20,000 nucleotides of DNA, from the IMG/VR virus record IMGVR_UViG_3300042564_001198, one strand, 5' to 3'. Below the pieces are notes generated by a model. That model ran no database searches, was not told where the DNA came from, and saw only the letters and a program-made list of their open reading frames with translations. Below are positions 582-19,474 of the stretch, one piece after another. Origin of the DNA: an uncultured virus (IMG/VR IMGVR_UViG_3300042564_001198) (taxonomy: Duplodnaviria > Heunggongvirae > Uroviricota > Caudoviricetes). A program made the translations under genes and the position numbers. Within the stretch, counting starts at the first letter, position 1, and the number at the start of each line of letters is the position of its first letter.

Positions 582-1520
582 TTAGTAAGGTTTGTTTAAT
601 TCTGCTGCGAATGCAGCTTTCTTAACTTGTTCTGGAGACACTTCATCACCAGATGTGGTTTCTTCGAACAGGTCAGATTTTTCTACCAGTTCTTTTTTAG
701 CTTGCAGAGATTTAATCACTACTTCAGCCGCTTCTGGGCTGGTGGCTTTCATTACGAATAATGATTTAGCAACAGTAGTTAATTCTTCAGCAGATACTAA
801 GTCTTTCAGAGTTTCTTGGAATGCTTCAAATTCAGCAGCTTCTTTTTCTTCTTTAGCTTTCTGTACTTGATTACGCAGTTCAACTACTTCCACTTCCAGA
901 GCAGATTTCTCAACTTTGAGTTGAGTAGCTTCTGCTACGGCAGCTTCGTGAGCTTGCTCGACTTGTTCTAATTGCTCGTAGCGAGCTTTTTCTACTTGGA
1001 TTTTCAAGGGGTCTTCCTCGTTTTGTTGTTGTAAAGATTTCTCGATTTGAGACTGGATAGTAGTGATAGCAATAAAGTCTTCATCACTAATTGTTTGGTT
1101 TGGGTTTTCGCTGAGAGACTTCATAATAGTGAACTGAGCTACACGCTCTGTAATCCACTTCTCATGTTCTTTCTCCCAATCGTATTCACCATCAGAAGAT
1201 TCACGTTCAGCTTTGTTTGCTTCAAACTCTGTTTCAAAACCTAACAGCTTTGTAAGGGTTTCCGCGTCAGAACTCCACATATCAAAGAACTTACGTAAGA
1301 ATTCTTCCATTGACATTGTTACAGTAATCTGTTCTAATGCTTTCTGTACTTTCACTACGTCAGTTGGTTGGATACCAACATTGGTCCCTTTTGTACAAAT
1401 TAGTTTGTACCCATTCGCGGCATTTCCTTGGTCTTTAGACACAAGGGCTACATGAGCACCATGTGTATCGAAGTCAAAGTTGAAAAGCTTACGCTTTGCT
1501 TTCTGTTTGCTAATTGTCAT
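582..1520 (-). CDS. Capsid scaffolding protein
   Basis: 312 aa; N-terminal AKRKLFNFDF..GAHVALV..QG.AANG, long acidic coiled-coil C-half; start overlaps protease stop. Confidence 0.7.
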   Translation of the reverse strand: MTISKQKAKRKLFNFDFDTHGAHVALVSKDQGNAANGYKLICTKGTNVGIQPTDVVKVQKALEQITVTMSMEEFLRKFFDMWSSDAETLTKLLGFETEFEANKAERESSDGEYDWEKEHEKWITERVAQFTIMKSLSENPNQTISDEDFIAITTIQSQIEKSLQQQNEEDPLKIQVEKARYEQLEQVEQAHEAAVAEATQLKVEKSALEVEVVELRNQVQKAKEEKEAAEFEAFQETLKDLVSAEELTTVAKSLFVMKATSPEAAEVVIKSLQAKKELVEKSDLFEETTSGDEVSPEQVKKAAFAAELNKPY

Positions 1521-2044
1521 TTAATTTCCTGCCCGTAAGCTTCACAATAAACGCTCAAGCCTGTGAACGTACCATCCTTCACTTTAGGCCAAATTACATC
1601 TTCAGCTAATTCATCTGGTTCAGGGAAGTACCATTCTTGCAACCAAGTGTTCTTGCGAATAGTCACTTGCTCACCTTCTGGATTCTCGATAATAAATTCA
1701 ACTGGAGAAGTATAAGACTGCTCGATAATGGCTAAGTCAGAATCAAGCATTACGCTGTGCATCAGATTAGCTTTCATGCAGTGAACGTTGAATGAGCGAC
1801 AAGCTTCGATAACGTCTTGGTCAAAGTAAACATCACCATGTAAGTCTTCTGTTTCTGCCTCAGACTCTTGTGGAGCTAATACAACGAACAATGCTCGACG
1901 TTCTTCAACGTCCACAGACTTACGTACCTGAACACCTTCTGGTGTAGTGACATCGCTCTCAATAACTTGCTTATGGTTTTCACTATCACCGATAGCCATG
2001 TCCAACAAGTCAGTAAACATTTTGATTAGTTTTTCTTTGTTCAT
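1517..2044 (-). CDS. Prohead protease (XkdF-like serine peptidase)
   Basis: 175 aa with DLHGD, ANLMH and VKDGTFTGLSV motifs; directly follows portal. Confidence 0.75.
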   Translation of the reverse strand: MNKEKLIKMFTDLLDMAIGDSENHKQVIESDVTTPEGVQVRKSVDVEERRALFVVLAPQESEAETEDLHGDVYFDQDVIEACRSFNVHCMKANLMHSVMLDSDLAIIEQSYTSPVEFIIENPEGEQVTIRKNTWLQEWYFPEPDELAEDVIWPKVKDGTFTGLSVYCEAYGQEIK

Positions 2045-2793: not shown

Positions 2794-3049
2794 CATTTGT
2801 TCAAAGTGAGTCGTTAATTCACTCCAGCGACATTATTCGCTTCTCTATGTTTCCATAAAGTTCAGACTATATCTTCATCCTATAAGGATGCTTCCCATTT
2901 CGAGCTACTTAGCCCTACGGCTTACGCCTAGTCGTTACACGTTCTCATTACTGAGCTTCGCTCGGTATTGTCTCCAACATTACTTGGTAAGAGTTTCACC
3001 GAATTAGAAAAGTTATTCAATGTGCATTACTACACAAGGGGGCAGTTCT
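2794..3049 (-). ncRNA. Group I self-splicing intron (256 nt, IA-like, no ORF) in portal gene
   Basis: 5' exon ends GGGU pairing with IGS GCCC; core UCGGUGAAAC, CAAUACCGAGC, GUAACGACUA, AAGAUAUAGUC; P3 CUUUUC/GGGAAG; P7.1 and P7.2 hairpins; P9 GAAA loop; terminal G at 2794; phase-0 join. Confidence 0.92.
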
Positions 3050-3814
3050 ACCCAAGTCCTTGCTCACCCCAACAACCTCATAGCTTGTAATCATTTCAAG
3101 CTCTTTCCAAGATTTAAAGCAGTCGTATAGATCTGATTTACCTTGAGGGTTGTTACCTGTACTGTTCCAACTAAACAACATAAACTTTTCTCTACGAACA
3201 AATTTATCTGTTAAGTTTTGTACAGTGAAAGGGTTGATATTACTTTGTCCAATAACTGTAGCTGGCATCCATTGATGTAAACCAACTAAGTCTCGCTTCA
3301 ATACAGCATCATCAAACACCCACTCACGAACACTCTTTTGAGCGCGAGGAGCAAGCTTTGCGTATTTGTATTTATATTTACCAGACCACTTAATACTATC
3401 ATTCTTTGCAAAGACTTTCTCAAGCCAAGCGAATCCATATTTACGGAATGTGATAATATTTGTGATGGCATCGTACCAACTGTTACCGACGAAGTTCTTG
3501 ATGTTCCAGTTGAGGAAGGCAGCAAAATCTTTTGACTCTTGACTTCCTGATACACCTGCGATAAACTTTGTAGCAAGTAGGGACTTCGTAAGGAATACTT
3601 CACCAGCGGTTAAGCCTTGGCTAACAGCAGAGGTAGAAGCCATCTTATCGTATGTGGTGAGGCTATGAGGAAACTGCAATTCTTTCTTAGCAGATTCTTC
3701 AATGTAGCCCCCGATGGCTTTTAGATATGGATTGCCGATCTCCCCTAAGCGAAGACGACTGTCTGAGCTAGAGGGATTAGATTCAGCTTTCTCAATTTGA
3801 ATTGTTTCTGACAT
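3050..3814 (-). CDS. Portal protein, exon 1 (255 aa)
   Basis: GAGG RBS; follows terL; portal-like segments (YGFAWLEKV, KLAPRAQ, NPQGKSDL); last 10 aa of listed ORF are intron read-through. Confidence 0.85.
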
Positions 3815-3826
3815 TATCCCCTCAGA

Positions 3827-5293
3827 TTATGAATTAAGGTCATATTGCGCTTTGATTGTGGGATCGTTGAGAGCGGTTAGTTTTGGGACTGTGTAAGTTT
3901 TGACACGGCACAGGAAATTAAAACAATCTGCTGTTGTATCAACCCAATCATCTTTGATTTTTCTGCTGCTGCGCCACTTACCGTCTTCGTTTGGTTGAAA
4001 TTGTTCAAGCTCTCTGTAGAAAGCATTCAGCGTCCTAGTATCAGGAAAACTATCTTCTACTATAAACACCAGACCAGATTGTGCCGCAGATAAGAAAGGT
4101 TCAAAGCGAGAAGATTTACTTCTTGTACCAGATGCGGCAGAAGGGTATATTTTAAATCCTTCGGCAACAAACTTCTTGGCAATCTCTTGAAACACTTGCT
4201 TTCCGTCTGCTCCGGCATCCTGAGCTAATACTACTTTAGTCTCTCTACCATCATGTTTGGCTTGCAGTAGCATTAATTGGTCTCGCTCACCGGCAGCTTT
4301 TCTAAACTTCCCATAAACTTGTTCGTGTTCATCGAAAGTAGTTTTAGCAAAGTCACCATATATGTAGTAAAATCCATTACTGTCTTTAGCCATGTGAATA
4401 CAAGCGGTAAAGTCTGCGTCTGTATTTTTAATCTTAGGACTATACTCTGTGTTAGCTTTATCCCAAGCTACTACTCTTTGACAACCTTCCGGTAAGGATT
4501 TTTTGACCCTTTCCCCATGTTGTCCCCTGAGCCATTTTCTGTCGAAGAATTTTATCTTGTCACTCTCGCTGTGCCAATTTCCGAAAAGCTGGCTGGCTCT
4601 TTCATGCTCAGGTAAATTTTGAAGTTCAGACAGATAGCGCGGGTTGAGTCGGATGAGTATTGGGTTATCAAAAATTGTTAGTTGCACAAAGCAAAACTTT
4701 TTAGGTGGTACATACATTTGCTCATTAGTGGACGGGTTGGTTATATACACCGTCTCCGGCATGTTTTCACTAAACCATTCTTCACTATCGGCAAATATAA
4801 AGTCATTATCTTTTACTACGTACCAACGAATTTGTCCATTCTTAGCCTTATCAACAAAACCCTCATCATCGAGATACCACTTAACTAGGTCATATACCCA
4901 GTTCTCCCTGTGGGGGTTACACGTTCCGATGCAAACAGAGTTCATGTTCGCTTCCGAGCGCAAAGTTGTAAGTAAAAATAAAAGAGCCTCTTTCGGGACT
5001 TGGGTGATTTCATCCACACCCAAATAGCTAAGTTGCAAGCCGCGCATTTTTTCAGCGTCAGAAAGATTTGAAATAGCTTTGTATCGAATCTTACAACCAG
5101 AAGGAAATTGATAATATGGTGGTGGAGATTTGATAGGTCTTGCACCAAGGAGAGGGTAGTATTTGTATGCAGTCTCCCACAAACCACCAGCACCTGTCAA
5201 TTGGTCATACTGAACACGGACAAACATTCCGTTGAATCGTGGATCATCTCGCCACATTAGAGGTATCTGAGTTATTACTTCAGACTTGCCGCC
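3827..5293 (-). CDS. terL: Terminase large subunit, exon 2 (488 aa; spliced protein 535 aa)
   Basis: GGKS end of Walker A, Walker B LGVDE, GTCNP motif, nuclease AWDKA and KDDWVD motifs. Confidence 0.92.
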   Translation of the reverse strand, partial: GGKSEVITQIPLMWRDDPRFNGMFVRVQYDQLTGAGGLWETAYKYYPLLGARPIKSPPPYYQFPSGCKIRYKAISNLSDAEKMRGLQLSYLGVDEITQVPKEALLFLLTTLRSEANMNSVCIGTCNPHRENWVYDLVKWYLDDEGFVDKAKNGQIRWYVVKDNDFIFADSEEWFSENMPETVYITNPSTNEQMYVPPKKFCFVQLTIFDNPILIRLNPRYLSELQNLPEHERASQLFGNWHSESDKIKFFDRKWLRGQHGERVKKSLPEGCQRVVAWDKANTEYSPKIKNTDADFTACIHMAKDSNGFYYIYGDFAKTTFDEHEQVYGKFRKAAGERDQLMLLQAKHDGRETKVVLAQDAGADGKQVFQEIAKKFVAEGFKIYPSAASGTRSKSSRFEPFLSAAQSGLVFIVEDSFPDTRTLNAFYRELEQFQPNEDGKWRSSRKIKDDWVDTTADCFNFLCRVKTYTVPKLTALNDPTIKAQYDLNS

Positions 5294-5503
5294 CAAGTCT
5301 CAGTTATGTGTTCGCTAGGCACTTCCACCGTTTCCGGTGTTGTCGGACTATATCTTATGCAATAAAGCATCCCTACGTTTTCATGTCGCTTGACATTACT
5401 TTAGTCTCTACACCCACGAATCTAATCGTTCGGCTCGGTATTGCCCTCGTCTATACGTTAGGGTTTCACCGACTTAGCAGGGTTACGTGGCAGCGGTCTA
5501 TTT
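5294..5503 (-). ncRNA. Group I self-splicing intron (210 nt, no ORF) in terL Walker A
   Basis: P1 CGUGGU/GCCACG with U.G at splice site; P10 CCGCU/GGCGG; P3 CCCUGC/GUAGGG; UCGGUGAAAC, CAAUACCGAGC, GUAGAGACUA, AAGAUAUAGUCC; P9 CACCG-GAAA-CGGUG; terminal G at 5294. Confidence 0.93.
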
Positions 5504-5644
5504 ACCACGCGAACCACCGATGATCATGAAATCTACTTCGGTAGCTCTTTTGAATACAAGTTCTTGCATTGGAGAACAAGGTCCAATCTCTACAATCTCT
5601 TTTGGAGGAGCCTTGTTCGTTACTTTAGGTCTTTTGTTACTCAT
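5504..5644 (-). CDS. terL: Terminase large subunit, exon 1 (47 aa, not in ORF track)
   Basis: AAGGAG RBS then MSNKRPKVTNKAPPKEIVEIGPCSPMQELVFKRATEVDFMIIGGSRG; splicing restores GGSRGGGKS. Confidence 0.9.
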
Positions 5645-5696: not shown

Positions 5697-6659
5697 CTAT
5701 AAAAGCTGGTCTTCATATTCATACACTATAGATAATATCTTAGATAAATTAGAGAGGTACGTTGTCTCTACATAACCGTGCTTCATATCTACTTTCGAAA
5801 CTACCTTTCTTATAATATCTTTACTTCTGTAGACTTTATTCTCAATGTCCAGTGCTGTATAACCACTAGCAAAATTGAACAAATACATAGGCTCTATATC
5901 AAAGGTAGAGTAGCGTCTGATTTCCTTCAAACGCCTTTCCATATTATTTGTAACACCAAACTTTATAACATCGTCAGTTACTTTAAGTATGTAGAATGTT
6001 CCTGATTTCTGTGGTTGAAAACCACTTCCACCACATAGAGGACAACCTTTACCTTGAACATGATTGTCTGGTGTTATACTAAATTCACCATGTGTAGGGC
6101 AGGTGACAATCACTTTTTGTTTACAGTTCTTGAATTCTGAAACAGTAGAATAGTCGTATAAATCGCCGTGAACTGCTTTGAATTTAAGAATATAACTTTC
6201 ACGACCTTTGTTGTGAAGATGACCTTTTCTTATATTGAAGCAACTTGGACAACCATGCCCAGACATTAAATTATTTGGCTTTGCTCTGAAAGTATGACCT
6301 TCCTTACAAGTCACCTCTATGTGTACAGAAGCTCTCTCGTATTTTGCATTACTAAAATCAAAACCATGTGCAGGGAATTTAGCGTCCAACTTTTTAATAA
6401 ACTCGTGCAGATTACTTGAAGCCACTTTAGATTTATATTCTCTTAGGCAGTCACAGCATCCAATCCCACCTAACATCATTGATTGAGCATCTTGCCAATA
6501 TGTGTTGCCGTGCTTGATACAAGTCACTTCGCACTTCTCGTGCTGAGTCAGGTAAACAAGGTTAGAATAGTCTAACTCTATTTTCTGGTTCTCTTTACAT
6601 TTTTCAATAAATTGTTCTTGTGTAAGACGACGATATTTACCTTTCCGCTTCTCTTTCAA
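5697..6659 (-). CDS. Free-standing homing endonuclease: repeated Zn-binding modules plus C-terminal GIY-YIG (T5orf172-like) domain
   Basis: Three CxxH/EG...GCxxC repeats; C-terminal FYILK..IKFGVTNNMERRLKE..GYVE; TTG start after AGGA. Confidence 0.75.
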   Translation of the reverse strand: MKEKRKGKYRRLTQEQFIEKCKENQKIELDYSNLVYLTQHEKCEVTCIKHGNTYWQDAQSMMLGGIGCCDCLREYKSKVASSNLHEFIKKLDAKFPAHGFDFSNAKYERASVHIEVTCKEGHTFRAKPNNLMSGHGCPSCFNIRKGHLHNKGRESYILKFKAVHGDLYDYSTVSEFKNCKQKVIVTCPTHGEFSITPDNHVQGKGCPLCGGSGFQPQKSGTFYILKVTDDVIKFGVTNNMERRLKEIRRYSTFDIEPMYLFNFASGYTALDIENKVYRSKDIIRKVVSKVDMKHGYVETTYLSNLSKILSIVYEYEDQLL

Positions 6660-11700: not shown

Positions 11701-12270
11701 TTAATTAAACTGATTCATGGATTTTTCGTAACTTTCTATTGAAATTTTACCATGAGTCTGAAAATACTCTTTAACGTAAGAATCCACATCAGCATACCCT
11801 TGTCCTTCGATAAAATCAATGAGCTGCTTACCTGACCCATCAAAAACAGCCACTATTTGCCGATCTATTTGTTTCAGACAAAGCCCTGTCGTAGCCAATT
11901 CAATCGGTATCCCAAGCTCATCCATAGCATTACTGTAATACCCCCAACTGGCATCCACTTCAAAACCATAATCCCAGTCAACATCATCATGCCTGAGAAA
12001 ATTCAGATCAGCGCATTTCCATTTGATAAACTCTGGTAGCTCTTTTATGGAAAAGTTCGGTTTGTCTTTGTTCAGTAAAGGGTTCTTTTTAGAAATACCA
12101 AAAGCTTCAACTTCCAGCATGGTTTCTTTGTCTGGTAACTCACAGTAAACTACCTCATCAAATTCCTTGTCCCGTTTGTGAGTTTTCAACCTATCTATAA
12201 TTTTAGTGGTAGAACCAATGTACACTAACTCGCCTTTATTTTTAAGACAATAAACATAATATTTAGTCAT
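11701..12270 (-). CDS. GIY-YIG endonuclease family protein
   Basis: YYVYCL..LVYIGST...RLKTH...E..I....P.LN. Confidence 0.8.
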   Translation of the reverse strand: MTKYYVYCLKNKGELVYIGSTTKIIDRLKTHKRDKEFDEVVYCELPDKETMLEVEAFGISKKNPLLNKDKPNFSIKELPEFIKWKCADLNFLRHDDVDWDYGFEVDASWGYYSNAMDELGIPIELATTGLCLKQIDRQIVAVFDGSGKQLIDFIEGQGYADVDSYVKEYFQTHGKISIESYEKSMNQFN

Positions 12271-13520: not shown

Positions 13521-14111
13521 ATGTTTAAATCAATTATTTCGTGGTGGAAAAATCAATTTCTTGCTGAAGGTGAGAGTCAAATTAAGTATCAGGAAGATGT
13601 AAGTGTTAAAGCTACACTGCCAGACTTACCTGAGAATGTACTAACTAAATCTCAATATTTGGGTAGTAGTCTCAAAGGTGAGGAATTTTATTTACGCATT
13701 AAACTAGGTGTGGATACTTTCAGTCTATATGGTAACAATAATGAATTACTTGATAGACAACTTAATGTCCCAGTAGCTACACTGCTGAAAGTAATCAAGC
13801 AAGCTTTTGACGATGGCGGTATTTACTTTCCAACAAGAGATCTGGAAACTGGAACAGTTACGGTAAAGTACAAAGAGAAACGGTTGTTAGATTTGGTGTT
13901 TAGTACAGAATCCTCGCTCCTGCGTTTCAGTAATGACTTAGTGTACGTGAATTGCCCTATTCGGTTCCCAGAAAGTTTGAATTTCTTAACGCAAGACGAA
14001 CATTTCTGGATTAGTCAGTATTTCCACTATCGTCTGAGAACCTTATGTGAAGAAAATGAAGAAAAACGTCGAGCAGCAACAGAGTTAGAACTACAGGAGT
14101 TATTAAAATGA
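13521..14111 (+). CDS. Hypothetical protein (196 aa)
   Basis: Start revised to ATG 13521 after GAGGAG. Confidence 0.75.
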   Translation: MFKSIISWWKNQFLAEGESQIKYQEDVSVKATLPDLPENVLTKSQYLGSSLKGEEFYLRIKLGVDTFSLYGNNNELLDRQLNVPVATLLKVIKQAFDDGGIYFPTRDLETGTVTVKYKEKRLLDLVFSTESSLLRFSNDLVYVNCPIRFPESLNFLTQDEHFWISQYFHYRLRTLCEENEEKRRAATELELQELLK

Positions 14112-14749
14112 TCAAAATTGATGAAGACATCTTAGCGACAATTGAGAGTATTGCTGAGAATACGATTGGTTACGAAGTGTATCTTGGGGGCGGTCTTTGC
14201 CGCGATGTGTATCTTGGTGTAAAACCAAAGGACATTGATTTATTCTTTGTCCCAGTTGAGAATGCACCTCAATACTTGTTATATGACACACATCGTAACT
14301 TACAGTATAGTTATCGAATGGAAACAAACGAGACACAATCTCTGTATCAACGAGGTGTTGAACAACTGATTGGTTTTAAAACTCCATCGTTAGCGGTGCC
14401 TGAGCTTCAGTTTATCGTGTATGGGACAACGTTGACAGCAGAAGAACTCACTGAAGACATGGATATTGGTATTTGTCAAATCATGTATCACATTTTCTCT
14501 GGTAAATTCTACGTATCTGAGAATTTTAAGAAAGATGTTGCAGCTAAAGAGATCCGCTGTTATCATAAGTACGACAAATACCGCATGATTGAACGATTTG
14601 ACAGAATGCAACGTAAGTTTCCAGACTTTAAGTGTGTTGGTAAACCTACGGTTGGGTTTAATGACTTCATCGAATCACCAATCGAAGTTATCAGCAGTGT
14701 TTATCGTAAGATTAAACCGCGTAAAGTTAGTTGTAGTAGTGGATACTGA
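14108..14749 (+). CDS. Class II nucleotidyltransferase (CCA-adding/poly(A) polymerase head domain-like)
   Basis: YLGGGLCRDVYLGVKPKDIDLFF motif A and DMDIGICQI (RDFTIN-like). Confidence 0.75.
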   Translation: MIKIDEDILATIESIAENTIGYEVYLGGGLCRDVYLGVKPKDIDLFFVPVENAPQYLLYDTHRNLQYSYRMETNETQSLYQRGVEQLIGFKTPSLAVPELQFIVYGTTLTAEELTEDMDIGICQIMYHIFSGKFYVSENFKKDVAAKEIRCYHKYDKYRMIERFDRMQRKFPDFKCVGKPTVGFNDFIESPIEVISSVYRKIKPRKVSCSSGY

Positions 14750-14890
14750 CGTAATCCACATTTAAACGCTCTAGGAACGATTATAAGCGATTATTTTATT
14801 TATGGCTACGTATGTATGACTTTATGAATATAATTGATTGTAGGCGTTTATAGGGCGGTTATAATTGATTTTAACAGGAGGATTGAGGTA

Positions 14891-15196
14891 ATGAGTAAAC
14901 AGATGGTTCGAGTAGAGCTGACAACACTTCAAACAGAGGGCAATGTTCCGGATTTAATTCTTGAACTGCAAGAGTTAGTTACACAGTACGGTAACACATT
15001 GGACTACGAGGTTGAAACACGGTATTCTTGGGGTGATGAGTATAAAGAATTTGTAGTTTATCACAACAGAGAAGAAACTGATGAAGAATATCAAGGGAGA
15101 CTGGGGAGAGAAGCGTATTATGTTAAAATGCTAGAAGAAAAAGAGAAAGCCGAGTATGAACGCTTGACTATTAAATTTAAGAAACCAAGTTTTTGA
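14891..15196 (+). CDS. Hypothetical protein (101 aa)
   Basis: Start revised to ATG 14891 after GAGG; REETDEEY..R motif. Confidence 0.75.
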   Translation: MSKQMVRVELTTLQTEGNVPDLILELQELVTQYGNTLDYEVETRYSWGDEYKEFVVYHNREETDEEYQGRLGREAYYVKMLEEKEKAEYERLTIKFKKPSF

Positions 15197-15207
15197 GGGG
15201 GATGAGA

Positions 15208-15540
15208 ATGAAACCAATTAATCGTAAATTTACCCCAGAAGTAGGTATGGCTTTAGCAACTAAAGATGGTCAGCGTTGTGGGAATGCTTTTATTATTAAA
15301 GAAGAAGATGAGAATTACGGTGGTGTAGAAACATTTCACTTGTTCCATGTGTTAACTGATTTCGGCAATGTAATGCGACTGACTGAGAACGAAGTCATTG
15401 AATTATTTGATATTGCTGATTGGTGGTGCGAGGAAGTAACATTTAGAGGGTTCTCTACTATGCCTAACCCTAAATGTCCTGTAGCGAGAATTAAACGTCA
15501 GATGCAATTGTTGACAGAACTATTGGAGGAATTGGAATAA
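15208..15540 (+). CDS. Hypothetical protein
   Basis: GAGGGGG RBS; LATKDGQRCGNA..VLTDFGN; stop overlaps next start. Confidence 0.7.
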   Translation: MKPINRKFTPEVGMALATKDGQRCGNAFIIKEEDENYGGVETFHLFHVLTDFGNVMRLTENEVIELFDIADWWCEEVTFRGFSTMPNPKCPVARIKRQMQLLTELLEELE

Positions 15541-16166
15541 TGGCAACACCAAATACAAAACGAGATGAGAAACAATCATCTAATGATTTATATGTTACAC
15601 CTGAAGAAGCTTTGGATGCTATTTGGTCACACATGCTGAAAGATGTTTTACGAAGTAAATCAGTATTAGAACCTTGCGCTGGTATGTTAGATATTGCTGA
15701 TTATTTAGAGAGTCAAGTGATTGATGCGAAAATATATGTGAACGAATTACATCCAGTTAAAGGGGTTTATTACGACAACACTGTAGATTTCTTATCCGAA
15801 GATAACGGTATAGGCAAACACGATCTTATTGTAACAAATCCGCCTTATAACAAAGCTGCGGAGTTTATCCTGAAAGGCTTTGAACATGCAGCCGTTCAAT
15901 GGCACTTTTTAAGACTATCGTTTTTAGAAGGACAGAAGCGATTTGATAACTTATTTAATTTAGGTAAATTATCGGATGTTTATGTATTTACTTACAGAGT
16001 GAGTTGTCCTAAAGGTGTATATCGTGAAGAAACCGCAAATAGTGTGTGCTATGCTTGGTATCGGTTTGATAATAAATACTGTGGTCAACCCCGATTACAC
16101 TGGTTAACTAAAGGAGAACAACATGCAAGACAACATTTATTCCTACGACAATCACAACGGATTTGA
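15540..16166 (+). CDS. DNA amino-methyltransferase (N6-adenine or N4-cytosine)
   Basis: DLYVTP, motif I VLEPCAG, motif IV IVTNPPY. Confidence 0.85.
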   Translation: MATPNTKRDEKQSSNDLYVTPEEALDAIWSHMLKDVLRSKSVLEPCAGMLDIADYLESQVIDAKIYVNELHPVKGVYYDNTVDFLSEDNGIGKHDLIVTNPPYNKAAEFILKGFEHAAVQWHFLRLSFLEGQKRFDNLFNLGKLSDVYVFTYRVSCPKGVYREETANSVCYAWYRFDNKYCGQPRLHWLTKGEQHARQHLFLRQSQRI

Positions 16167-16940: not shown

Positions 16941-17747
16941 ATGACTTTAGAGCATGGTGGTGGTCGTAAAGTGCGTGAACGTAAAGTTACACGAGCTAAG
17001 AAGGTAGCTGAGTCTACAGCTAAACCAGAACGTAAAGAAAAGTTTGAGGAAGAACATAAATCTAAGCTGTTTGACTTAAAACCTAAGACACCAGCACAGG
17101 TTCAGTATCTTCAGAACTTGAAATCTAAGCAGCTAAATTTCGCCGTTGGCGCATCAGGTTCGGGCAAGACATTTGTTGCCTGTGTCTATGCCGTGAATAA
17201 GTTCTTAGAAGGGGAGTTTGAACGTATTGTTCTGATCCGACCATACGAATTCGTTGGGCGTACAATCGGGATGCGGCCCGGATCTTCTGATGAAAAACTA
17301 ATGCCTGTGATGCAATCAATGCTTGATCCAATCAAGCAAGTCCTTGGCGCTGGTCAATTTGAATATGCGCTGGAGCATGGTCAAATCATTATGGAAAGCT
17401 TAGAGGATTGTCGCGGACGAAGTTATAAGAAAACAATAATCATTGTAGATGAAGGTTCAAATACAGATGTCAAAGCTATTCAAACACTTGTTACACGTAT
17501 TGACGAAGGTTCTCAGATGATTGTCTGTGGCGATACTGCTTCTTGGCAACAAGACATTAAGGGTGAATCAGGTCTGAAGTTTATCCTAGATTTGATTAAA
17601 AAGCTACGCAAAGAAAGCCCAGAATATTTAGATGGTGAAGATTATGAAAATCTTACCAACAACATCGGTATTGTTACTTTCACCCGAGATGATGTAGTTC
17701 GTTCTGGATTAGCTAAGTTGTTTGTAAAAGCTTTCGATGAAATTTAA
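16941..17747 (+). CDS. phoH: PhoH-like ATPase
   Basis: GASGSGKT, CRGRSY, IIVDEGSN, TRIDEGS..CGD, DVVRSGL. Confidence 0.93.
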   Translation: MTLEHGGGRKVRERKVTRAKKVAESTAKPERKEKFEEEHKSKLFDLKPKTPAQVQYLQNLKSKQLNFAVGASGSGKTFVACVYAVNKFLEGEFERIVLIRPYEFVGRTIGMRPGSSDEKLMPVMQSMLDPIKQVLGAGQFEYALEHGQIIMESLEDCRGRSYKKTIIIVDEGSNTDVKAIQTLVTRIDEGSQMIVCGDTASWQQDIKGESGLKFILDLIKKLRKESPEYLDGEDYENLTNNIGIVTFTRDDVVRSGLAKLFVKAFDEI

Positions 17748-17759
17748 AGGAGAAACACA

Positions 17760-18539
17760 ATGAATAAGAAACCACGTTTCGGGTCAGATTTAGGGAACGG
17801 CATTACACCATTTGTTGTGCTGAGTAGCCCCGCTACTTACAAACACCAAATCTATATCCACAATAACTTAGAGCAACCAGACGAGCTTGTAGCTATTCTA
17901 GACGTATTGTATTCAGCGAGTGAAGATGACCAAGTTACTATTCATTTGAATAGTGGCGGTGGTTCCATTTACTCTCTGGATACGCTCTTGTCAGCTATCG
18001 CTTATTGTCCAGCACACATTCATGTGATTGCTACAGGAAATATTGCATCAGCAGCAACGTTTATCTTGTTGTCGGCAGATAGTTTTGAGATTAGTCCTTA
18101 CGCTTCGCTGTTGTTTCATGCCTGTTCGTTTGGTGTGTACGGCGAGAGCCAAGATAATATCGAATATGTGCAGTTTGTTCATAAAGAAAATGAACGTCTG
18201 ATGCGAGATTATTACAGTAATTTGTTCACTGAAGATGAAATCAATGATATTATCATTAATAAGCGTCAAAAGTGGCTTACGTCTGATGAGTTCTCAGAGC
18301 GATTTGAGAAAGCTAAGAAACTTAGTGAGAAACAACACAAAGAAGCTGTAGACAAAGCTCAGCAAGACTTCCTAGCTTCAATGGAAGCTGATGAACTACC
18401 AGAAGCAATTCTGAAGAAACTAACTAAGCTTCAACTAATTGCTTATATTCAAGGTGATATTATTGTTGAAGTGGGTGAGGATGGCGAGACATTTGAGATT
18501 ATTGAAATCGAAGATGAAGAACCTCCAAAATTACATTGA
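17760..18539 (+). CDS. ClpP-like serine protease
   Basis: IHLNSGGGS, IASAATFILL, LLFH motifs; acidic tail. Confidence 0.85.
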   Translation: MNKKPRFGSDLGNGITPFVVLSSPATYKHQIYIHNNLEQPDELVAILDVLYSASEDDQVTIHLNSGGGSIYSLDTLLSAIAYCPAHIHVIATGNIASAATFILLSADSFEISPYASLLFHACSFGVYGESQDNIEYVQFVHKENERLMRDYYSNLFTEDEINDIIINKRQKWLTSDEFSERFEKAKKLSEKQHKEAVDKAQQDFLASMEADELPEAILKKLTKLQLIAYIQGDIIVEVGEDGETFEIIEIEDEEPPKLH

Positions 18540-18564
18540 CAATAGACAATTAGTTTGATATGAT
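18536..18564 (+). promoter_or_regulatory. Sigma70-like promoter
   Basis: TTGACA-17bp-TATGAT with extended TG; -35 overlaps the TGA stop. Confidence 0.7.
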
Positions 18565-18597
18565 AGCCGCTCTACTGATGTAGGCGGCTTTTATTTT
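18565..18597 (+). terminator. Rho-independent terminator
   Basis: AGCCGC(T)CTAC-TGAT-GTAGGCGGCT then TTTATTTT. Confidence 0.7.
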
Positions 18598-18612
18598 ATG
18601 TGGAGAATGTAT

Positions 18613-18888
18613 ATGAAGAATATTGCTGTAATTGTAAACAATAAAAGAGAGTGGGAGTTTTTCGTTGAAGCATTACAGTTTGCTTTATCGAAAGAGGATG
18701 TACCATACAAAGCAACAGCCAATGACATTGTAGACAAACAGAAAGATGTACGATACTTCCTAGTACCTAATCATTTCAGTGGTATTGAACGTATGCGAGG
18801 TGTCATTGTGAATGATTATATGACTATGGCTAATTTTGTGGATGATGATATTCGTGAATATTTGATGAACTATATGAGAGGAGAATAA
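18613..18888 (+). CDS. Hypothetical protein
   Basis: Start revised to ATG 18613 after GGAG. Confidence 0.7.
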   Translation: MKNIAVIVNNKREWEFFVEALQFALSKEDVPYKATANDIVDKQKDVRYFLVPNHFSGIERMRGVIVNDYMTMANFVDDDIREYLMNYMRGE

Positions 18889-18889
18889 A

Positions 18890-19474
18890 ATGGCTAAAAT
18901 TTTTGTGATGAATTCACCACCAAACACAGGTAAAGATGTCGCAGCAGAGTATATTGCTGAGAAATACCAAGCTCAACACTTGCGATTCAAAGATGGTTTG
19001 TATAAAGTGGCTGCTATGGTGGCTGGGATTGATGTAGAGAGTATGAAATGGTCTGCTACGCAAAGATTGACTAAGGAAACACCACAACCTTATTTTATCA
19101 TAAATGGACTATCAGTTAGTCCTCGACAATGGCTGATTCACTGTTCTGAGAATATTGTAAAACCATTACTAGGTAAAGACTTCTTTGGTAAGCAATTAGC
19201 TCAGTCAATCACATCTGATTTGGTGGTTGCGTCTGACAGTGGTTTTGAATCAGAGATTATTCCTCTGCTTGAAGCAGGACACGATGTATATGTATTCCGT
19301 ATTGAACGTGAGGGTTATACGTTTGCGGGTGATAGTCGTAACTATTTACCAACATCACCGCTGTATAAAACATTCTTAGTGGAGAACAATGGAACACTGG
19401 AACAGTTCTTGAATAAGGTGGGAAGTATTGTGGATGATATTGTTGGAATTAGTGGGGTGTCTGGAAAATGCTAA
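18890..19474 (+). CDS. Deoxynucleoside monophosphate kinase
   Basis: P-loop NSPPNTGKD, SPRQWLI, VASDSGFESE, VENNGTLEQF. Confidence 0.8.
   Translation: MAKIFVMNSPPNTGKDVAAEYIAEKYQAQHLRFKDGLYKVAAMVAGIDVESMKWSATQRLTKETPQPYFIINGLSVSPRQWLIHCSENIVKPLLGKDFFGKQLAQSITSDLVVASDSGFESEIIPLLEAGHDVYVFRIEREGYTFAGDSRNYLPTSPLYKTFLVENNGTLEQFLNKVGSIVDDIVGISGVSGKC

Follow-up and report, generated by a model that had tools for sequence, protein, structure and literature searches.

In the window (the whole 20,000-nt stretch of viral DNA that was analysed), the minus-strand terL gene consists of a first exon, a 210-nt group I intron and a second exon, and it is split inside the codons of the Walker A motif. We consider it very probable (about 0.9) that the insert is a group I intron that splices and would thereby restore Walker A. 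The preliminary description had proposed an intron of this kind hiding a 47-aa exon, and the core match, the covariation among relatives, the junction seen in uninterrupted homologues and the homology to an intron of Vibrio phage ICP1 all speak for it. The intron is not new in kind, because by its sequence it is a homologue of the terL intron already published for ICP1. The elements of the gene are listed below.

5654-5649, minus strand: ribosome-binding site AAGGAG of terL, read from the sequence, 4 nt before the ATG at 5644
5504..5644, minus strand: terL exon 1, 141 nt, 47 codons, ending GGT GGT TCG CGT GGT (GGSRG, the first half of Walker A)
5294..5503, minus strand: ORF-less group I intron, 210 nt (RF00028, 47.7 bits, and family covariation)
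3827..5293, minus strand: terL exon 2, 488 codons and a stop, beginning GGKSEV (Pfam Terminase_6N, 2e-15; Terminase_6C, 1e-07)

The triplets AAA TAG follow directly after exon 1, so the unspliced frame ends after one added residue, and a mechanical ORF call gives a 48-aa product (5498..5644). The downstream part of the gene was called mechanically as 3827..5296 with a TTG start at 5296, before which no Shine-Dalgarno motif was found in the sequence read. When the exons were joined by their coordinates, a 535-aa TerL with an intact GGSRGGGKS was obtained, which differs from the database protein P0001 at two residues. Six uninterrupted homologues (P0003, P0007, P0008, P0009, P0013 and P0014) all read ..VDF(M/L)(I/L)(I/V)GGSRGGGKSEV.. 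at the junction. The ribosome-binding site, the ATG and the 47-aa exon ending in GGSRG had been described earlier, and their coordinates hold in the sequence. Exon 2 does start with GGKS (GGC GGC AAG TCT from 5293), splitting Walker A exactly at the junction of the six homologues, and the stop predicted for the unspliced RNA is there, with TAG as the second intron codon. Exon 1 is conserved in two relatives (70% amino acid identity in L011 and 68% in L051), whose TerL proteins are 60-62% identical to that of the window. The closest TerL of an isolate among the GenBank phages was 43.5% identical, so this collection holds no cultured close relative.

Other explanations of the insert as a coding element were discarded. 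No minus-strand ORF of 40 aa or more was found inside 5294-5503. An intein is ruled out by the stop codons and the RNA fold of the insert, and a programmed frameshift by its length of 210 nt and by the TAG that the frame meets after a single codon. The plus-strand antisense ORF at 5239..5523 is a mechanical ORF lying over structured RNA. The GenBank record OX241437.1 likewise annotates an antisense 'hypothetical protein' over its terL intron.

The terL intron was missed in an Rfam search at the gathering threshold, as it does not reach the RF00028 cut-off of 50 bits. In a permissive search it scored 47.7 bits, with an E-value of 3.9e-11 for a 501-nt piece and 1.6e-09 for the whole 20-kb window. 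The near miss is due to the lack of P2 and a misaligned P1, which itself follows from the lack of P2, and not to the core: the alignment was good over P3, P4-P6, the AGACUA...AAGAUAUAGUCC hallmark (P7 and J8/7), P8 and P9. Elsewhere the 210-nt form scored 52.8 bits (L051) and 48.7 bits (L011), and the relative in L012 reached 82.4 bits.

The fold is described by the following elements, all on the minus strand.

5486..5496: internal guide sequence; GCCACG (5491-5486) is the P1 strand and CCGCU (5496-5492) the P10 strand
5477..5482: P3, 5' strand CCCUGC; partner GUAGGG at 5376-5371; every cell paired (100%), with compensatory changes in 3 of 6 pairs
5472-5467 with 5440-5435: P4, enclosing P5/P5a; seen in the alignment, RNAalifold and the MFE fold
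5463-5460 with 5447-5444: P5/P5a, inside P4; seen in the alignment and the MFE fold
5412..5434: P6 hairpin (5434-5426 with 5419-5412); seen in RNAalifold and the covariation alignment
5402..5408: P7, 5' strand GAGACUA with a bulged A; partner UAGUCC at 5350-5345; every cell paired (100%), with compensatory changes in 4 of 6 pairs
5383..5396: P7.2-like hairpin between P7 and P3', AUGUC/GACAU; 4 of 5 pairs compensatory, P7.1 absent
5357..5370: P8 hairpin, AUGC/GCAU; next to it comes J8/7 (AAGAUA, 5356-5351), which is conserved
5326..5339: P9 hairpin, CACCG-GAAA-CGGUG; 5 of 5 pairs compensatory
5294: omega G, the last base of the intron at its 3' splice site; all 18 aligned family members end in G

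It had been claimed that the guide sequence pairs with both exons, and the two pairings were found as proposed. In P1, the end of exon 1, CGUGGU (5509-5504), pairs with GCCACG and places a U.G pair at the splice site; in P10, CCGCU pairs with GGCGG, the first five bases of exon 2. When the 21-nt leader of the intron was shuffled 200,000 times, the adjacent arrangement of P10 and P1 appeared 33 times and P1 by itself 17,663 times. P7, the guanosine-binding helix, forms a pseudoknot with P3, and its pair at alignment columns 138/244 was G-C in all 18 introns, with the neighbouring column 137 unpaired (the G-binding pair beside the bulge). P9.1 of the window intron has 3 bp. The window intron has no P2, as only UAA lies between P1 and P3, and the absence of P2 noted in the preliminary description is therefore correct.

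Selection on this structure was examined in an alignment of 18 distinct complete introns, made with MAFFT after setting the splice sites by eye; P7 (as the pseudoknot) and P10 were added by hand to the RNAalifold structure. Over 53 pairs in 18 introns, 97.6% of the 946 pair cells were standard pairs, compared with 83.2% in shuffles, and none of 500 shuffles reached the observed value. When the partners were slid by 1-3 columns, the share fell to 34-37%. Compensatory changes were present in 30 of the 53 pairs, including pairs of P7, P1 and P10, so that the alignment supports P1, P3-P9, the P3/P7 pseudoknot and P10. It was also found that P1 and P10 covary with changes in the exons across the relatives, and that the U at position -1 before the 5' splice site is invariant (18/18). 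That the window and L011 rows count as unpaired in these two helices is solely an effect of the MAFFT alignment, in which their shorter leader is shifted; their own pairings are those described above. RNAalifold, unaided, recovered P1, P3, P4, P5, P6, the hairpin between P7 and P3' (P7.2), P8 and P9 from the 18 introns, and on a four-sequence alignment it also recovered P10 and P9.1. Folding of the window intron as a single sequence gave P3-P6, P7.2, P8 and P9 at a z-score of -1.85, modestly better than shuffles.

Our impression from the hairpin between P7 and P3' is that the window intron is IA-like. Subgroup IA (IA2-like) is reportedly marked, after Michel and Westhof, by the extra hairpins P7.1 and P7.2 between P7 and P3'. 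One such hairpin was present in the window, L011, PH357, L042 and L051, and two in 13 of the 18 aligned relatives. P2, P7.1 and P7.2 are named as class features in a review (PMC3984707).

Searching GenBank phages with the 210 nt by blastn matched 118 records, 109 of them Vibrio phages including ICP1 isolates. The identities were 69% for ICP1 (163 nt, intron positions 19-181), 81% for Pseudoalteromonas phage PH357 and 71% for Vibrio phage 1.161.O. In each of the GenBank records inspected, the match had a short ORF upstream of it and, on the other side, a 'terminase large subunit' that is short at its N-terminus. By megablast, the terL region matched GenBank phages solely in 81 nt of the intron core. 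The window intron is a mosaic, with 81 nt that are 96% identical to Vibrio phage 424E50-1 and a P7-P8 region resembling that of PH357. Further relatives were gathered by a motif scan of IMG/VR and with an HMM built from four family members, and one locus from a JGI metagenome (L051) was added. In the collected loci, the family HMM found 30 places with 21 distinct sequences, all adjoining terL where this could be checked.

The intron had been called minimal, and at 210 nt it is indeed the shortest form within its family: it has this length in the window, L011 and L051, and the other 16 of the 18 aligned members measure 225-284 nt. P2 is absent from every family member. P7.1 is absent from the window, L011, L051, PH357 and L042, and forms a 4-bp stem with a conserved loop in the others. 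The leader (UAA), P5 and P9.1 (3 bp) of the window intron are the shortest in the family. A full-text literature search for the exact phrase 'smallest group I intron' found no paper. The Azoarcus tRNA-Ile intron, of subgroup IC3, has about 205 nt; it resembles the window intron in being small and without an ORF, which implies no homology, and differs in lying in a tRNA anticodon loop and in having P2 and no hairpin between P7 and P3', the reverse of the window intron.

Introns in terL are also known from Lactobacillus phage LL-H and Twort-like staphylococcal phages, where they belong to group I; these phages and the Bastillevirinae differ from the present case in having Gram-positive hosts. 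Terminases are listed among the usual targets of phage introns in the review PMC3984707. For the Bastillevirinae, group I introns are reported in 5 of 52 terL genes, sometimes several per gene and with small internal exons; unlike the 210-nt ORF-less intron of the window, the introns described there average 802 nt and mostly carry endonuclease ORFs (PMC11878797).

The closest parallel is ICP1 (ORF129/intron/ORF128). Splicing of its terminase transcript was shown with RNA-seq (Magic-BLAST) and RT-PCR by Barth, Dunham and Seed (NAR Genom Bioinform 2023, PMC10448857). The same paper describes that earlier annotation had missed the N-terminal terL exon, and that the T5orf172 endonuclease gene adjoins this exon and is not inside the intron. 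The two phages have in common the gene, the P-loop codons, an ORF-less intron, a short unannotated N-terminal exon and, directly upstream, a free-standing endonuclease gene of the same family (Gp130 in ICP1). Their intron cores are homologous (69% identity over intron positions 19-181), with P3-P9 in common and P2 absent from both. On the other hand, the ICP1 intron has 262 nt and possesses P7.1 with its conserved loop and a long P9.1, whereas the 210-nt window intron has no P7.1 and a short P9.1, and P7 is GAUCA/UGAUC in ICP1 but GACUA/UAGUC in the window. The ICP1 site lies 6 nt (two codons) upstream, at GGA|AGGGKS, and is served by another guide sequence; the window site is GGSRG|GGKS. The window TerL is about 27-30% identical to TerL across ICP1-type loci, and the window phage comes from lake water.

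Of the 18 aligned introns, 16 are inserted after the GGA codon (..GGTGGAGCT|). The introns of the window, L011 and L051 lie 6 nt downstream of this site, between GGSRG and GGKS, and their guide sequence is altered to match. In all, four positions in the P-loop codons are occupied, namely GG| (L012), GGA|, GGSRG| and GGAAGG| (the second intron of L040), with matching guide sequences. We tentatively propose, at slightly less than an even chance, that the P-loop codons of terL in these aquatic phages are a hot spot where one intron lineage, through changes of its guide sequence, re-targeted itself to at least four positions within about 15 nt, that the window copy is the naturally minimised end of this series, and that free-standing endonuclease genes of four unrelated families were exchanged in the slot just upstream. 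If this is true, these loci would document how an insertion site slides in nature, probably through reverse splicing, and how endonucleases turn over, and the window intron would be a compact ribozyme scaffold tested by evolution.

Several of the collected terL genes were interrupted more than once. The region L040:1102-2421, on an IMG/VR phage contig, contains a 284-nt intron after GGA, a 9-nt micro-exon (A-G-G) and a second group I intron (83.2 bits), so the P-loop is built from three exons; at least two further RF00028 matches (92.3 and 32.7 bits) lie downstream. At L012:639-902 a group I intron (82.4 bits) follows ..YGG|; the protein, P0046-like and 827 aa long, has intein/LAGLIDADG domains right after GAGK, which places intron and intein within about five codons of one P-loop. 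L051 has a second member of the family (2676-2904; 42.3 bits; nhmmer E 1.3e-19), which follows TerL residue 132 and so stands immediately ahead of the Walker B region.

Upstream of the window terL lies a gene that resembles those of free-standing homing endonucleases.

5697..6659, minus strand: free-standing gene for a homing-endonuclease-like protein of 320 aa; 52 nt lie between its end and the start codon of terL

Its product matched phrog_681 'endonuclease' (E 9.5e-64) and phrog_559 'HNH endonuclease' (E 2e-30), and in Pfam the DUF4379 zinc finger, DUF723 and, weakly, CapR/MUG113. It is 27% identical to ICP1 ORF130/Gp130 over 212 aa (E 3e-21). An endonuclease-like ORF stands directly upstream of exon 1 in 15 of 19 distinct intron-bearing loci with upstream sequence; this count leaves out L006, whose record begins within the region of exon 1, as well as L012 and the truncated L043. 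Four PHROG families are represented:

phrog_681, six loci: window, ICP1, PH357, L039, L042, L032
phrog_59 (NUMOD4-HNH), five loci: L011, L051, L035, L050, L031 (Pfam NUMOD4 confirmed for L011 and L051)
phrog_99 (HNH), two loci: L034, L038
phrog_7168 (GIY-YIG), two loci: L046, 424E50-1

No such ORF was found upstream of terL in the remaining four of the 19 (L041, L044, L040 and L045). The introns of L035 and L046 are near-identical and their endonucleases different. As a control, we used six distinct relatives in which the P-loop is uninterrupted and the sequence upstream extends for 1.8 kb or more. A phrog_681 gene occupied the same slot in three of them (L018, L023 and L024) and not in the other three (L016, L017 and L019). 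Adjacency to an endonuclease is therefore not specific to intron-bearing alleles, and the upstream slot is a general endonuclease hot spot, a view of this position that also appears in Barth et al. (PMC10448857). The link between the upstream endonuclease and the intron is suggestive.

Information on intron-less forms of the window gene came from proteins. In the protein cluster at 90% identity, the split 48-aa/476-aa calls are accompanied by three 535-aa products without interruption (P0001, P0123 and P0129), which come from contigs of 3.2, 5.7 and 31 kb. These three fit an intron presence/absence polymorphism; being protein sequences alone, they would look the same whether derived from intron-less DNA or from cDNA. 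When metagenome contigs were searched with P0001 for an intron-less close allele, the single locus obtained was L051, which has the intron. A degenerate pattern of the junction peptide found 46 loci in IMG/VR, 25 of them with a TerL match, all at 23-33% identity, and no close relative among them.

Following established group I intron chemistry, splicing would proceed as follows. The pre-mRNA would fold into the P3-P9 core with the P3/P7 pseudoknot, and the guide sequence would pair with the last six bases of exon 1, so that P1 would contain U5504 as part of a U.G wobble. A free guanosine, bound by P7, would attack after U5504, the terminal G5294 would next take the same P7 site, and exon 1, aligned by the 5-bp P10, would attack the 3' splice site. 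The ligated mRNA would encode the 535-aa TerL with an intact GGSRGGGKS. Translation of unspliced RNA would end one codon into the intron, and exon 2 alone would be without the N-terminal strand and half of the P-loop. The upstream endonuclease may, in addition, mobilise the intron by collaborative homing. Among 24 sequencing runs (18 of lake or plankton DNA and 6 of RNA with small shares), X12, X13, X14 and X19 were used and gave fragmentary contigs without joints, X19 matching just 30-40-nt conserved core pieces from other organisms, and this result bears neither way on splicing or on intron-less DNA.

That the window intron self-splices unaided is a claim we would make less firmly than that it splices. 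With P7.1 and the longer P9.1 missing, it could need a protein cofactor or splice poorly in vitro. It might accordingly be spliced in vivo and not be autocatalytic, depending on an RNA chaperone or a maturase-like factor of the host or phage. We regard such dependence as improbable, even though the window intron is the most reduced of its family, having lost P2, P7.1 and most of P9.1, though some group I introns of Bastillevirinae phages are reported to be spliced in infected cells and not in vitro (PMC11878797), and though the splicing described for ICP1 was seen with infected-cell RNA only (PMC10448857). The entire catalytic core is intact and under structural selection, the 210-nt form persists in two diverged phages (L011 and L051, TerL 60-62% identical), and no candidate cofactor gene was identified. 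Far less credible is a decayed intron relic or spacer, with TerL made as two polypeptides (48 aa and about 476-489 aa) or started at TTG 5296. The public gene calls do list the 48-aa and 476-aa products separately (P0122 and P0121), but exon 2 alone has just half of the P-loop, its TTG lacks a Shine-Dalgarno motif, and in the record of ICP1 this exon carries the remark 'poor ribosome-binding site'. In addition, conservation with compensatory changes extends to every core helix, the -1 U and the terminal G, which would be unexpected of a relic, and the homologous ICP1 intron is spliced (PMC10448857).

How the intron moves is less clear-cut. With an ORF-less intron and an adjacent free-standing endonuclease gene, the window fits the layout of collaborative homing, a process documented for comparable layouts (PMC3984707, PMC6083498), and Barth et al. 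discuss the ICP1 layout as collaborative homing or endonuclease turnover (PMC10448857). Documented pairs are F-CphI with the psbA intron of cyanophage S-PM2 and, in T3/T7-like phages, the DNA-polymerase intron with the endonuclease next to it. The window differs from them in the gene and in the endonuclease families, and the family of the neighbour varies among related loci; cleavage of the intron-less allele at the insertion site has been demonstrated in those systems. It is possible, but rather doubtful, that the 5697-6659 endonuclease mobilises the window intron by collaborative homing. Spread or movement of the intron by guide-directed reverse splicing, with the neighbouring endonuclease as an independent selfish element sharing the hot spot, is a rival explanation that appears rather unlikely. 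Homologous introns at four P-loop positions, each with a matching guide sequence, point in that direction, given that endonuclease-driven homing copies a site and does not shift it, and so do the endonucleases upstream of three of six intron-less terL genes and their absence from 4 of 19 intron-bearing loci. Against it, an endonuclease-like ORF does stand immediately upstream in 15 of the 19 loci with an intron, and collaborative homing is on record for like layouts (PMC3984707, PMC6083498).

Public gene calls for the window phage consist of a 48-aa orphan and an N-terminally truncated 476-aa terminase, and the predicted true product is the 535-aa TerL. The same mis-annotation was seen in close homologue clusters, where 19 of the 29 closest begin at or after the P-loop. 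No new principle comes from the window intron. Its value is that it extends the ICP1 observation to a broad family of aquatic phages with an intron in the P-loop motif of terL, that it is a 210-nt natural variant without P2 and P7.1, and that the family forms a comparative set for insertion-site change in group I introns and for the turnover of free-standing endonucleases beside them. The first exon of terL is misannotated in OX241437.1 (2996-3214), HQ641347.1 (2379-2480) and MG592529.1 (1-212); GenBank labels it 'hypothetical protein' or a 38-aa 'terminase large subunit', and the introns are unannotated.

Other interrupted or mobile-element-like genes were noticed in the window. The portal gene is also split by a group I intron (3049..2794, minus strand; RF00028 80.6 bits over 2843-3063), the second in the window, which looks unrelated to the one in terL. 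Its junction, after ..SKDLG and before GVLVLRVP, was set from the uninterrupted portals of L013, L016, L021, L026 and L030; with 3050 as the last base of exon 1 and 2793 as the first of exon 2, the intron has 256 nt and ends in G2794. This intron possesses P2 and two hairpins between P7 and P3', and the portal ORFs 3017-3814 and 2041-2796 match Portal_Mu only in halves. The portal genes of L020 and L023 have extra interruptions. Two ORFs in the regions 1517-2044 (minus strand) and 14834-16166 (plus strand) match parts of DNA methyltransferase profiles (positions 205-353 of 379 in phrog_1530 and 198-386 of 458 in phrog_799); they adjoin short abutting ORFs (14834-15196 and 15193-15540) and may be split or fragmented genes. 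ORF 11701-12270 (minus strand) weakly matches homing-endonuclease PHROGs. The RF00028 search of the window detected no group I intron at 1517-2044, 14834-16166 or 11701-12270, and no tRNA genes were found in the window. The surrounding genes are ordinary large-phage content, with a nucleotidyltransferase at 14108-14749 and, on the plus strand at 16941-19474, PhoH-like (phrog_170), ClpP-like/head-maturation protease (phrog_1827) and dNMP kinase (phrog_139) genes. Outside the window, the nearest record (G001:C1:28149-29102) has two weak RF00028 matches (34.2 and 20.1 bits) at a distance of about 14 kb from the terL intron, and further introns may therefore be present in the genome.
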